NCBI GenBank assembly: GCA_963675245.1
Contig: OY775910.1
Span: 1,312,001-1,376,000, forward strand
Direction of reading: 5' to 3'
Source: Acholeplasmataceae bacterium
Lineage (GTDB): Bacteria; Bacillota_I; Bacilli_A; Acholeplasmatales; Acholeplasmataceae
Length of the DNA: 64,000 nt
This document shows, piece by piece, positions 41,895 through 45,525 of the stretch. A program made the position numbers and the translations under genes. A model generated the notes under the pieces. The model had not been told where the DNA came from. It saw nothing but the letters and a program-made list of their open reading frames with translations, and made no database searches. Within the stretch, counting starts at the first letter, position 1. Every line of letters starts with the position of its first letter.

Positions 41895-42213
41895 ATGTCT
41901 GAACTAATTCATGCTGCGAAAGAAACGGATATGATTAATGATAAAAGAATCAAAGAAAATCAAAAACATAATAAAAATAATCAACTTTAATTCGCTCAAT
42001 ACAACATTGTTAATGTGTATTTAATAAAAATAACCTATAAAATTTTGACATACTATCATGACAAGATGTATTGTCTTAGAAAATTTGAAATATGTTACAT
42101 TTTTTATGTGTTAAAAAGATATTGTTTACATCCGAATTACAATATAATTATGATTGAATATTATATGATTAGCGCTTATAATGAGGGTGATTAGAAAAGG
42201 CAAGGTGATGGAT

Positions 42214-43443
42214 ATGAATAAAAGAGAAATTGTAGATGGTATATATAGTTTTTCAATGAACATTGACAACATTATATTTGAAAATATGTGGGAACTACCT
42301 CATGGTGTATCGATGAATTCATACATTGTTAAAGGTAATGATGTGGCTATTATTGATGGTGTCATAGGTTGGGATGGTGTGCCTGAAACACTTTACAAAA
42401 ATTTAAAAGATTTTGATATTGAACTTGAAGACATTAAATATCTTGTTGTTAACCACGTTGAGATGGATCACACTGGATGGTTGACTAACTTCAAAAAAAT
42501 GAGTAAAGATTTTACCGTTGTCGCAACCAAAAAAGGAGAAGACATAATCAAATCATTTTATGGCGATGACATGAACATCTTAGTGGTCAAAGATGGAGAC
42601 ACATTAGATCTTGGTCATGGTAAGATATTAGCATTTTATGAAATTCCAAATGTACATTGGCCTGAGACGATGATGACTTATGAAATCAGTTCAAAAGCAT
42701 TATTTCCATGTGATTTATATGGTATTTTTGGGACAGTTAAAGGTCATCTTTATGATGATGAATTAACGGATGATGAAAAGAAGATATATGCTGAAGAAGG
42801 CTTAAGGTATTATACCAATGTTATGATGACCTATACACCAAGAGTTAAAAAGGCGATTGAAAAAACAAGGGCATTAGATATTAAGTTAATTCTTCCTGGT
42901 CATGGTATCTTGTATCGTGGTAATCCAGATCAAATCGTAGATGATTATGAACGATGGGGTGCTTATACAAATGGCCAAGGTGAGAATGAAGTCACGATTA
43001 TTTGGGGGTCAATGTATGGATCAACTGAAAAAATGGTCAATTATACGAAAGGACTACTAGAAAAAGAAGGCATTAAAGTAAAGATGGTCCAAATGCCTTA
43101 TGACACACAAAGTAATGTTTTAACAAAATCACTTAGTTCTGCAGCGATAATAATCGCTGCACCTACCTATGAATATAAAATGTTTCCACCTGTAGCTCAT
43201 GCACTTGATGAACTTGGTAGAAAAAGAATGATTGGAAAGAAGACGCTTTATTTTGGATCAGCTGGATGGATTGGTGGTGCAAAAAAGGATTTTGAATCTA
43301 TTCTTGAGACATCACGTATGAAATGGGATATTGTGGATGCTTTAGAGTTTATTGGTACAGCGGATGAAGATGCTTATCAAATGATCAATCATGCAGTTAA
43401 GAAATTAATTGAATCAATGAAGGAAAATATTTATCAAAGATAA
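42214..43443 (+). CDS. fprA: Flavodiiron protein (FprA/A-type flavoprotein)
   Basis: HVEMDH, HWPE, PGHG, flavodoxin SMYGST; start could be 42181-42214. Confidence 0.92.
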   Translation: MNKREIVDGIYSFSMNIDNIIFENMWELPHGVSMNSYIVKGNDVAIIDGVIGWDGVPETLYKNLKDFDIELEDIKYLVVNHVEMDHTGWLTNFKKMSKDFTVVATKKGEDIIKSFYGDDMNILVVKDGDTLDLGHGKILAFYEIPNVHWPETMMTYEISSKALFPCDLYGIFGTVKGHLYDDELTDDEKKIYAEEGLRYYTNVMMTYTPRVKKAIEKTRALDIKLILPGHGILYRGNPDQIVDDYERWGAYTNGQGENEVTIIWGSMYGSTEKMVNYTKGLLEKEGIKVKMVQMPYDTQSNVLTKSLSSAAIIIAAPTYEYKMFPPVAHALDELGRKRMIGKKTLYFGSAGWIGGAKKDFESILETSRMKWDIVDALEFIGTADEDAYQMINHAVKKLIESMKENIYQR

Positions 43444-43769
43444 TCTATTATTTATTTTTGCAACAACTATTAGAGATGTTAGTCAATAGCTAGCATCTTT
43501 TTTGATAAATAAAGAATTATTAACATTATTCATGCATAAGTGTGTGATTTATTGGGATTTAAAGCAAATTGATAAACGTACAATAGTTGTAGTAGTAAGA
43601 TAAAGACAAAGAAAGAAATTACTAACTTTTATCAATGAGGTGACTAACTATTAAAAGTCAAGTACTTTTAGTAGATAAACTGTAAAAACCTCCAATAGCC
43701 ATAATTTTTAGAGGTTAGCCATATAACTGGATGATTTTATGACTTAACCGCCACAGTTTAAGTAATCAA

Positions 43770-44930
43770 TTATTGTAGTTTAGAGGAATCAAAATCTTCC
43801 TGATGTGTTTCGAGATGATGAATGACTCTAATGAGTTTTTTTGAAAGATGAACCAGTGCGACACGATGATGTTTACCCTCTTGTTTCTTCTTGGTGTAGT
43901 AGTCGTAGAAGACGGGGTTATAGATCATAACCATCATTGAGATATTGATGAGTGTTGCTCTTAGGTACTTGCTGCCACGTTTAACCAGTTTACCTGTTGA
44001 AGACATGGTGCCAGACTGTCTGATGGTTGAATCCAGACCTGCATAGGATAACATTTCAGCGGGATTGGAGAAAAGTGAAATATCACCATATTCTGAAACG
44101 ATGACAGCTGCTGAAATGATTCCGATACCTTTAATGGTTTGAATCTTAGTTGGATATCGATGCATTAAAGAAATGATCTGTTTCTCAGTTTCTTCGATAT
44201 CTTGATTGAGTTTCTCAACATAAGAAATTGAAGTCTTAAGTTTGAATAGTTGATGATCTTGTGTCACACCAATGGTTGATTTTGCGAGTTCCTTCAGTTT
44301 AACAAACTTCGGATAATTGAATTTACCCATCGATCGTTTACGAAGCTTATCGAAGTGGTCATCAGTCATCCTTGCTATTTTATCCGGTGATGAAAAGCGC
44401 TTCAAGATGTATAAAGATGTATCACTATAGCCTTGTTCTTGCATAAAAGGTTTGAATTCAGGAAAGATGACATCTAAGACCTTGGTCATCATATTGTAGT
44501 GTTTCGTCCGAATTGAGATGAGTTTAAAACGTAACCTGGTCAGTGATTTTAAAGCACTTATATGATAAGATTGATGATGATAGGCTTTGTAGTCTACAGA
44601 TCTCATATAAGTTGAAATCATTTGTGCATCTTTCTTATCCGTCTTTGTTTTTCTCAGTGAATGGGCTTCTCCAAACTTCTTCACGAGAAAAGGATTAATC
44701 TCCATGAATGAATATCCATGGAGGATAAGAAATGACTTAAGGTTTTCTCCATAATGACCTGTGGCCTCTAAGCCTATTATCATTTCTTGCTTGACTAAAG
44801 AGTTAAAGTATCCTAATAGTTCTTTAAACCCAGACTGACTGTTCTCAAATGAGAACTGATGGCTAACTGTTTCGGTGGCGATGAAACAGTCATGCTTGTA
44901 CTTTGAAATATCGATGCCGATATAGATCAT
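43770..44930 (-). CDS. IS110 recombinase/transposase
   Basis: GIDISK, LEATGHY, KTDKKDA (DEDD RuvC), GIG, YAGL...QSG, KRG. Confidence 0.96.
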   Translation of the reverse strand: MIYIGIDISKYKHDCFIATETVSHQFSFENSQSGFKELLGYFNSLVKQEMIIGLEATGHYGENLKSFLILHGYSFMEINPFLVKKFGEAHSLRKTKTDKKDAQMISTYMRSVDYKAYHHQSYHISALKSLTRLRFKLISIRTKHYNMMTKVLDVIFPEFKPFMQEQGYSDTSLYILKRFSSPDKIARMTDDHFDKLRKRSMGKFNYPKFVKLKELAKSTIGVTQDHQLFKLKTSISYVEKLNQDIEETEKQIISLMHRYPTKIQTIKGIGIISAAVIVSEYGDISLFSNPAEMLSYAGLDSTIRQSGTMSSTGKLVKRGSKYLRATLINISMMVMIYNPVFYDYYTKKKQEGKHHRVALVHLSKKLIRVIHHLETHQEDFDSSKLQ

Positions 44931-44944
44931 AAGTACACCTCCAA

Positions 44945-45175
44945 GAATTAAATTTGTACGTGTGGTAAGTCCAGCAGCGTCTTTATCTCATAATCATGTA
45001 AAAAGCGTCTTCCGCTAACTAACTATTGCTGATTAAAATAAAGACCGTGGTAAGCGTCACCTCAAAATAGTCTAGGTTATAAAAATATGACACAGATCCA
45101 CAGTACATTATTAGTATATTAAATTAGAACGAAAGGAGTAAAGATTTAAAGACTTAAGTAACTAACTTAATACAC
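44945..45175 (-). ncRNA. Predicted IS110 bridge RNA (ends approximate)
   Basis: Nested stems with internal loops whose segments match the donor junction and target flanks. Confidence 0.8.
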
Positions 45176-45195
45176 TTTAAATCTTACATGACTGT

Positions 45196-45525
45196 ATGAA
45201 AAATAAAATCATCATATTATTACTCCTGGTTTCATTTTTTGTTGGTGCTGTTCAATTATTATCTAATCGATCAGTTTCGACTGATGCAAACTCAGGTGCT
45301 ACACAACACGCTATTTCATCAAACATTGATGGCACGACAAGTCCAACAATCATTAATGAAGGTGCATTTTTTGATGGTCTTGCAGGTGTAACGATGATAT
45401 CTGAACTAGATGCCTTAAGTGGTGCATCAACATCTAGAGATGAATATGACGACGATGATGATGAACATGAAGATGAGTATGAACATGAAGATGAACACGA
45501 AGATGAATCGGAGTATGATGACTAA
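45196..45525 (+). CDS. Small exported peptide with flavinylation-like motifs and an acidic/His tail
   Basis: Signal anchor, DANSGAT and DALSGAS, D/E/H-rich C-terminus; RBS displaced by the IS. Confidence 0.65.
   Translation: MKNKIIILLLLVSFFVGAVQLLSNRSVSTDANSGATQHAISSNIDGTTSPTIINEGAFFDGLAGVTMISELDALSGASTSRDEYDDDDDEHEDEYEHEDEHEDESEYDD

Follow-up and report, generated by a model that had tools for sequence, protein, structure and literature searches.

The bridge RNA of an IS110-family element of an Acholeplasmataceae bacterium is, with high confidence, programmed by its target guides for the interval between the Shine-Dalgarno sequence and the start codon of host genes. The element is located in a window of 64,000 nt, the whole stretch of DNA that was analysed, and its features are compiled in Table 1. 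According to the proposed mechanism, the donor loop of the RNA would pair with the joined ends of the excised circle, using AAUAGUUAG+UU for the right end and UUACAU+GA for the left end. The target loop would pair with the host site TGAGGT-GA-N3-TATGA: its 3' guide UGAGGUGA would read the Shine-Dalgarno sequence and the core, and its 5' guide UCAUAUUU+UU the start-codon region and the core. Recombination would then take place at the core of 2 nt, which is TC on the transposase strand, and put the element between ribosome-binding site and ATG, always in antisense orientation. The anatomy of the element, its junctions, the empty sites in congeners, the covariation of helices and guides and the promoter rebuilt across the circle junction are all seen in the sequences. 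From them we infer that the RNA is made and that it guides the recombinase.

Table 1. Positions of the insertion sequence, its predicted RNA elements and the flanking target site (window coordinates)
Feature	Position	Strand	Basis
Right target half-site on host DNA, TGAGGT of the downstream gene's Shine-Dalgarno sequence	43636..43641	+	flank reading
Core GA (TC on transposase strand), right-end junction, LD-core-RT	43642..43643	+	junctions; TC at both junctions in relatives
IS110-family insertion sequence, 1,546 bp	43644..45189	- (transposase strand)	copy comparison and junctions
-35 hexamer TTGACT in right end; 17 nt from left-end TAAGAT after circularisation	43656..43661	-	junction reconstruction
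Transposase/recombinase, 386 aa, DEDD_Tnp_IS110 and Transposase_20	43770..44930	-	Pfam
Transposase's own ribosome-binding site GGAGGTG, separate from guide	44936..44942	-	sequence reading
Predicted bridge RNA body: closing helix, target-binding arm, donor-binding arm	44952..45110	-	covariance-model match
Donor-binding arm: 10-bp basal stem, internal loop, inner hairpin 45004-45016	44980..45044	-	covariation
Right donor guide UUACAUGA (UUACAU+GA); complement of core and first 6 nt of left end	44994..45001	-	8/8
Left donor guide AAUAGUUAG+UU; sense of IS right end and core	45017..45027	-	10 identical, 1 G-U of 11
Right target guide UGAGGUGA: 6 nt Shine-Dalgarno and GA for core	45057..45064	-	covariation, sequence match
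Target-loop inner hairpin	45067..45080	-	helix 4 94% paired, two-sided changes in 4/4 pairs
Left target guide UCAUAUUU+UU: 8 nt left target and 2 nt core; contains CAU	45081..45090	-	homology, covariation
Closing helix P1, 5' strand; pairs with 44955-44959 and 44961-44965	45098..45107	-	alignment
Promoter-like TTTACT-18-TATACT just 5' of bridge RNA body	45113..45142	-	consensus match only
-10 hexamer TAAGAT of junction promoter	45181..45186	-	junction reconstruction
Core GA, left-end junction, LT-core-RD; GT in glnS copy	45190..45191	+	junctions
Left target half-site CTGTATGA including start codon 45196-45198 of 109-aa ORF (45196-45525)	45192..45199	+	flank reading

The element, its recombinase and the core

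The 1.63-Mb single-contig genome contains four copies of the ~1.55-kb element. They are 99-100% identical and differ internally at 2 positions in all. The element ends CTAACTATT... and ...TCTTACAT have no inverted copies, i.e. there are no terminal inverted repeats. Neither the junctions nor the empty sites of congeners display a duplication beyond the 2-nt core that is common to donor and target. Since GA is the dinucleotide present at both junctions, the IS proper extends from 43644 to 45189. When read in the direction of the adjacent gene, the four copies share the arrangement (T/A)GAGGT-GA-[IS]-G(A/T)-N4-ATG. This means, each copy lies between GAGGTGA and ATG, antisense to its target gene. 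The core had previously been taken for CT. This assignment was rejected: The genomic copies L003 and L004 have TT and TA after the ...CATGA / ...CATGT IS end, and relatives carry TC at both junctions. The actual core is GA on the plus strand and TC on the transposase strand.

Uninterrupted target sites were found in congeners. At lpd, all nine congener loci read ...GAGGTG...N-ATG without an insert. At glnS, eight of nine loci are uninterrupted, and the ninth carries a related IS end (see below). In the closest congener, the empty glnS site TGAGGTGTTATTATGG corresponds exactly to the left flank plus the right flank of the own copy. The glnS copy (L004; G000:C1 ~634975 and 636530, minus strand) represents a natural core mismatch: The donor has GA and the target GT, as read from the empty site of the closest congener. 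After insertion, GA is found at the right-end junction and GT at the left-end junction. Therefore, each core was kept with its left arm (LD or LT). This fits top-strand cleavage 3' of the core as outlined for IS621 in the accessible text of PMC11208158.

The 386-aa transposase matches Pfam families PF01548 (E 3.2e-36) and PF02371 (E 4.7e-22) and has its DEDD RuvC-like domain at the N-terminus and its Tnp (Transposase_20) domain at the C-terminus, as in IS621-type recombinases. Its PDB matches are distant: ISCro4 (9t56) with E 1e-16 and IS621 (8wt6) with E 1.7e-15, the latter confined to the RuvC-like domain. Residues D7, E55, D98, D101, S306 and G307 are invariant in 25 homologues, and the N-terminal spacing, by which the proteins were compared, matches that of IS621. 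In IS621, the catalytic and Tnp residues are D11, E60, D102, D105, S241 and G242 (PMC11208158, accessible text). The nearest named homologues originate from Acholeplasma (89%) and Haploplasma (73%).

In the assembled contigs of the sequencing runs X1, X4 and X20 (X19 yielded none), the only form in which these runs were searched, no circle junction, no RNA ends and no empty site were seen; in the contigs of run X1 the IS appears as a collapsed repeat with loose ends leading into the flanks of other copies. The element is best viewed as an intact member of the IS110 group that was active in recent times.

A predicted bridge RNA and its donor loop

Judged from its sequence, the non-coding region of the left end encodes a putative bridge RNA of ~155 nt on the transposase strand. 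The RNA is read from the minus strand because only this direction puts the target loop before the donor loop and gives the guides the sense known from IS621. The sequence-only reading had likewise proposed a bridge RNA of the IS110 type on the transposase strand, its target loop lying 5' of the donor loop, and agrees with our analysis in this respect. The stem 44979-44986/45038-45045 (GTCTTTAT/ATAAAGAC) and the hairpin 45004-45016 (AGCG-TCTTC-CGCT) that it had listed are present, too, and all its other sequence statements were confirmed at the coordinates given.

The window and four close relatives (protein identity 84-90%) were aligned, which showed a constant donor loop and a variable target loop, and a covariance model was derived from this alignment. 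Relatives were the best 80 of 571 in a homologue search. The search with the model detected this RNA in 79 of the 83 sources, and every match lay just 5' of the gene on the transposase strand. Three of the four sources without a match have less than ~120 nt before the gene, and the fourth is a 38%-identity relative. In the alignment fitted to the model, from which all of the following figures come, 89% of the cells are paired compared to 72.5% in shuffled alignments, two-sided changes occur in 33 of 35 helix pairs, and the covariation score amounts to 0.449 compared to at most 0.071 with slid partners. Helices 1 and 2, which form the closing helix, are 92% and 86% paired with two-sided changes in nine of ten pairs. 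In the donor arm, helix 7 is 91% paired with two-sided changes in 10/10 pairs, and helix 8 is 100% paired. The weak point is the 3-bp basal stem of the target arm with 58% of cells paired. A scan of 43400-45500 with Rfam 15 (E up to 1) yielded no match apart from a chance snoRNA, and the complete left end, folded as a single sequence, shows no more stability than shuffled sequences (z -1.36).

The donor loop matches both IS ends, as had been noticed from the sequence. ACTAACTATT is present twice in the window, at 43643-43652 and at 45018-45027 (0.22 occurrences expected; none of 100 shuffles reaches two). TTACATGA is found at 45184-45191 on the plus strand and at 44994-45001 on the minus strand. 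As an 8-mer, it is not enriched in the window (6 found, 5.97 expected); what counts is its position at the IS end, not its number.

Circularisation of the element rebuilds a promoter from two hexamers located in opposite ends (Table 1). All 22 relatives with both ends mapped rebuild, in silico, TTGAC(T/A)-17-TAAGAT or TATAAT across the junction, with scores of 9-12 of 12 in 22/22 and TTGACT-17-TATAAT as the commonest version. This rebuilt junction promoter supports both the assignment of the ends and a circular intermediate. The ends of the relatives were located with the donor guides, so that the agreement of donor guides in relatives arises partly by construction. From the 79 matches, 36 were dropped for the right-end test and 54 for the left-end test, either because no unique credible end was found or because the contig ended. 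Other ways to define the ends of relatives were abandoned: Exact k-mer matches or best scores in a fixed register missed or misplaced many of them and were replaced by stricter rules, and the end-points of BLAST matches among loci provided rough ends only.

In addition to the junction promoter, the promoter-like block upstream of the RNA body (Table 1), whose sequence is conserved in close relatives, may serve as an internal promoter for synthesis of the bridge RNA from the integrated copy; the promoter scan as a whole is not above chance (10 sites found, 7.3 expected). In a biogas-fermenter metatranscriptome (run X20), two contigs are 90-95% alike over 44560-45063. They stem from a relative, cover the 5' part of its transposase gene and the donor arm, and are no proof of transcription here.

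Target guides and choice of insertion sites

In the target loop, the 3' side terminates with the eight bases of the right target guide UGAGGUGA. This guide is complementary to TC-ACCTCA on the top strand, which is the core followed by the reverse complement of the Shine-Dalgarno sequence, and pairs in 8/8 positions at this site. TGAGGT/GAGGUGA is in turn complementary to the 3' tail of the 16S rRNA of this genome (GGAUCACCUCCUUUCU), the gene of which was located with Rfam RF00177. TGAGGTGAC is present at 43636-43644 (+) and at 45056-45064 (-), with 0.23 occurrences expected and two of 100 shuffles reaching two. The target loop had been described as the exact reverse complement of the flank 43636-43644. 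The complementarity is exact indeed; the ninth base, C43644, does not belong to the flank but is the first base of the IS. C45056 follows the right target guide and pairs with the terminal base of the IS itself. By analogy, it may occupy a handshake-type position, as a handshake guide would pair after strand exchange (concept from the accessible text of Hiraizumi et al. 2024, PMC11208158).

In relatives, the right guides vary (GGGAGUGA, GGAGUUGA, AGGGGUGA, AAGGAGA, UAGGAGG, GAAAGG and others), and the flank changes alongside. For 43 loci, which collapse to 32 unique pairs, guide and flank share on average 4.56 of 6 matches compared to 2.54 after permutation, and none of 10,000 permutations reaches the observed value, a figure that overstates the effect on account of relatedness among the sequences. 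At least a 5-mer of the complement to the 16S tail is contained in 41 of 56 unique right-guide loops, but in none of 62 left-guide loops, versus ~7 among shuffled ones. A right guide different from a Shine-Dalgarno sequence, UAUUAAUAGA, was observed in L066, L068 and L079. In the distant relatives L076, L082, L077, L072 and L073, the 5' guide ends with CCTCCT, TTCCT or TACCT and the core is CC, so that the cut would fall within the Shine-Dalgarno sequence or on its other side.

The covariation between guides and flanks across elements with different flanks makes it highly improbable that the loop-flank matches are due to chance, or that a protein determines the specificity and no guide RNA exists. 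Such an explanation can point to a transcript that is not in evidence and to the lack of an Rfam match. It is opposed by the compensatory changes in 33/35 helix pairs, too, and by exact matches of a 10-mer and a 9-mer located at the ends of the element.

The left target guide UCAUAUUU+UU comprises 10 nt that, by homology, end flush with the inner stem and have CAU opposite the start codon. At this site, 6 Watson-Crick pairs, 2 G-U pairs and 2 mismatches are formed. At the four own sites, the left guide achieves 5-6 of 8 matches with mismatches at both core-proximal positions. Close relatives score 7/8 (L005, L007) and 6/8 (L008) in this flush register, and L036 is within 6-7/8. Over 25 loci, left guide and left flank have a mean of 4.04/8 matches compared to 3.06 after permutation, with none of 5,000 permutations reaching it, a number which is likewise inflated by relatedness; three further loci were dropped from this test due to a non-consensus end. 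When the guide was slipped along the flank, covariation peaked at the core-flush register (z 4.4).

The sequence-only reading had aligned TATAAAAA (45078-45085) with TATGAAAA (45195-45202), i.e. in a register slipped by 8. The match itself is real and includes one G-U, but this is probably not the working register, as its z value is 1.7 compared to 4.4. If it were, UUUUUAUA (45085-45078) would pair with TATGAAAA, that is with start codon and lysine codon, 3 nt away from the core, and would form 7 Watson-Crick pairs and one G-U out of 8 at this site. In addition, this offset register discriminates used from unused sites at least as well: Among the 79 [AT]GAGGTGA sites of the genome, the lowest score of a used site is reached by 5/75 unused sites in the offset register and by 10/75 in the flush register. 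Within this genome alone, the two registers are indistinguishable, and both reward TATG at one place. By contrast, the offset register would take up three bases from the inner stem, a helix with 94% pairing and covariation. It leaves 3 bases besides the core unpaired, unlike all four IS621 guides in the accessible text of PMC11208160, and lacks clear covariation across the 25 relatives even with the own copies included. A U-run opposite A-rich second codons is expected from composition, and the flush register attains 6-7/8 in the close relatives named above. The offset register is thus improbable. The flush register is probably the right one, because the covariation in the family peaks there while the own genome cannot separate the two.

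In 23 of 25 mapped relatives, the strand opposite to the transposase carries an ORF of at least 40 aa whose start is 3-8 nt behind the core. When the IS copies were removed in silico, the genome contained 33 exact TGAGGTGA sites, 18 of them with an ATG 3-7 nt further. Three used sites are among the 9 exact sites with at least 5/8 left-half matches; none of the other 24 is used, and the fourth used site has AGAGGTGA. The target class is abundant, but not unlimited. The earlier proposal that the target loop is programmed for the interval between Shine-Dalgarno sequence and start codon is corroborated by all four own copies, by the empty sites in congeners and by the clade-wide covariation of guide and flank. 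Collection of the insertion sites placed 4/4 own copies at GAGGTGA next to ATG and no copy at a site unrelated to the guides.

At the four own sites, the Shine-Dalgarno half is recognized strictly (7-8/8) and the start-codon half loosely (5-6/8), so that one guide reaches many genes. A natural bridge RNA with one strict and one tolerant half-guide bears on the off-target rules for bridge recombinases. It might even be assumed that the Shine-Dalgarno guide and the core decide, that the left guide adds little and that the ATG is a by-product of the location of Shine-Dalgarno sequences. The unequal matching of the two halves at all four sites and the poor left matches of some relatives in the flush register (2/8 in L006, 1/8 in L009) are in line with this assumption, and a 2026 preprint, to go by its title, reportedly deals with half-match recombination by bridge recombinases. 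However, left guides and left flanks of the relatives change together (0/5,000 permutations), exact TGAGGTGA sites with four or fewer left matches are not used (0/24) compared to 3/9 with at least five, and CAT is found in 20 and CTAT in 25 others of the 62 unique left-guide loops. Targeting by the right half alone is, hence, rather unlikely, and a contribution of both target guides is preferred.

Target genes and relation to known systems

The four targets are the gene for the 109-aa protein, which has no family match, a gene for a GDSL/PaeY-like esterase, lpd behind the E2 gene, and glnS. With a completeness of 99.96%, the genome contains one glnS only, whose open frame of 549 aa is intact; gatB was not found in this genome. 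Where gatB is lacking, glnS is the source of glutaminyl-tRNA and hence essential. As there is no gatB and only one glnS, glutaminyl-tRNA must come from glnS here, and the gene should be indispensable. In another congener species, a related IS end (…TTACATGA) is located at the identical glnS position (TACT ATGG) at a contig end (L102:2150-2273, G009), and the contig breaks inside the related element. This is recurrent or inherited use of the start region of an apparently indispensable gene.

What happens to the target genes was inferred from the position of the insertions. With each insertion, 1.55 kb come to lie between Shine-Dalgarno sequence and ATG. By-eye inspection of the copies revealed no IS-borne Shine-Dalgarno sequence within 50 nt of the ATG and no in-frame upstream start. 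On neither strand of the IS was a terminator-like site found, so that read-through from a host promoter is possible. The sequence-only reading had assumed that such insertions silence genes without breaking their ORFs. The displacement of the Shine-Dalgarno sequence and the lack of a substitute in the IS end argue for it. Nevertheless, the copy in front of glnS, the sole gene of its kind in a genome that lacks gatB, casts doubt on silencing, and that the insertions switch their target genes off seems unlikely: The glnS reading frame behind the insertion is intact, a related element occupies the same site in another species, host transcripts may read through the element, and lpd, which is part of a pyruvate dehydrogenase operon, was hit as well.

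Since excision of IS110-type elements is precise, the insertion could, as a tentative and rather unlikely idea, be a scar-free and reversible dimmer of translation instead of a knock-out, with the guides of a clade spanning Mycoplasmatota and Bacillota being hard-wired to the complement of the 16S tail and to ATG, a short sequence that each host has to contain in many places. If this were true, it would explain why insertions in front of the indispensable glnS have been tolerated in two independent cases. The expression of a supposedly indispensable gene with 1.55 kb between ribosome-binding site and start codon is a testable puzzle.

Two side observations concern the surroundings of the insertion. 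In the window copy and in L002, the IS end and the core create an ATG (45188-45199, +) and with it a 3-codon mini-ORF, ATG ACT GTA/ATA TGA, whose stop codon overlaps the target ATG. It is absent from L003 and L004 and has no Shine-Dalgarno sequence of its own. As an expression mechanism, the mini-ORF, present in only two of four copies, was not adopted. The gene upstream of the element (42181-43443, +) ends ~190 nt before the targeted Shine-Dalgarno sequence. In its 420-aa product, a flavodoxin-like part comes after an ODP/metallo-beta-lactamase fold, which is a flavodiiron-protein-like layout.

The loop logic and the strand rules of the guides were established for the IS621 bridge RNA (Durrant et al. 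2024, PMC11208160; Hiraizumi et al. 2024, PMC11208158), and the comparison refers to the accessible text of these two papers. Like IS621, the element encodes a recombinase with a DEDD/RuvC-like and a Tnp domain, and its predicted RNA, which lies in the left end and on the transposase strand, has the target loop ahead of the donor loop. In both systems, the 5' side of a loop corresponds to the left half-site of the top strand plus core, and the 3' side complements the core plus the right half-site. Furthermore, a sigma-70 promoter is rebuilt across the circle junction, and a handshake-type base is found behind the right target guide. In contrast to IS621 with its CT core, the core is TC. Non-CT cores were found to work as well (Durrant 2024, PMC11208160, accessible text); therefore, a CT core was not treated as defining the IS621 type. 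Other differences are a long (6+2) and dominant right target guide combined with a loosely matched left one, a closing helix that encloses both arms, and a target arm of ~40 nt compared to 65 in IS621. The natural target is the interval between ribosome-binding site and start codon, whereas IS621 uses REP elements. At the protein level, the similarity is distant (E 1.7e-15, RuvC-like domain only).

IS900 of Mycobacterium avium, with which IS901, IS902 and IS1110 are grouped, belongs to the IS110 family, too. To judge from the title of a 1997 report by Doran et al. (Microbiology 143:547), IS900 is said to target translation-initiation signals and to insert in one orientation between ribosome-binding site and start codon. 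The element described here shares the oriented insertion between these two signals in 4/4 own copies and 23/25 relatives. IS900 contains hed, a long ORF opposite to the transposase gene that is devoid of its own ribosome-binding site or start codon and is said to be expressed from captured host signals (PMC8141618, accessible text). Here, a hed-like ORF is missing: The sole plus-strand ORF of at least 50 aa inside the IS is located at 44543-44698 and comprises 51 aa. Moreover, the host phylum differs, and the likeness is one of insertion habit. A literature search found no paper that assigns a bridge RNA to IS900.

CazIS110-1 from Caloranaerobacter azorensis, an IS110 element with a bridge RNA in a Bacillota host, was shown to be active (10.1101/2025.10.25.684509, accessible text). 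In that text, a transfer mainly of the top strand is proposed. Compared by description, such a transfer would also yield the core pattern observed at glnS. Ribosome-binding sites or start codons are not mentioned in the accessible text of this preprint. Similarly, no paper was found that links the guides of bridge RNAs to ribosome-binding sites or start codons, among them PMC11208160, PMC11187229 and 10.1101/2025.10.25.684509 as far as their text is accessible; subscription journals and bioRxiv supplements lay outside the search, and the supplementary target tables of Durrant et al. may well contain such elements.

In summary, the mechanism is that of an IS621-type bridge RNA, and targeting of ribosome-binding sites and start codons is known in the IS110 family; the present analysis links the two for many relatives. 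This link offers an explanation by base-pairing for what has long been observed, namely the homing of some IS110-family elements to translation-initiation signals. Furthermore, this target class is no mycobacterial oddity, as it is common to dozens of elements in, according to record titles, Acholeplasmataceae, Erysipelotrichaceae, Bacilli and Clostridia MAGs.
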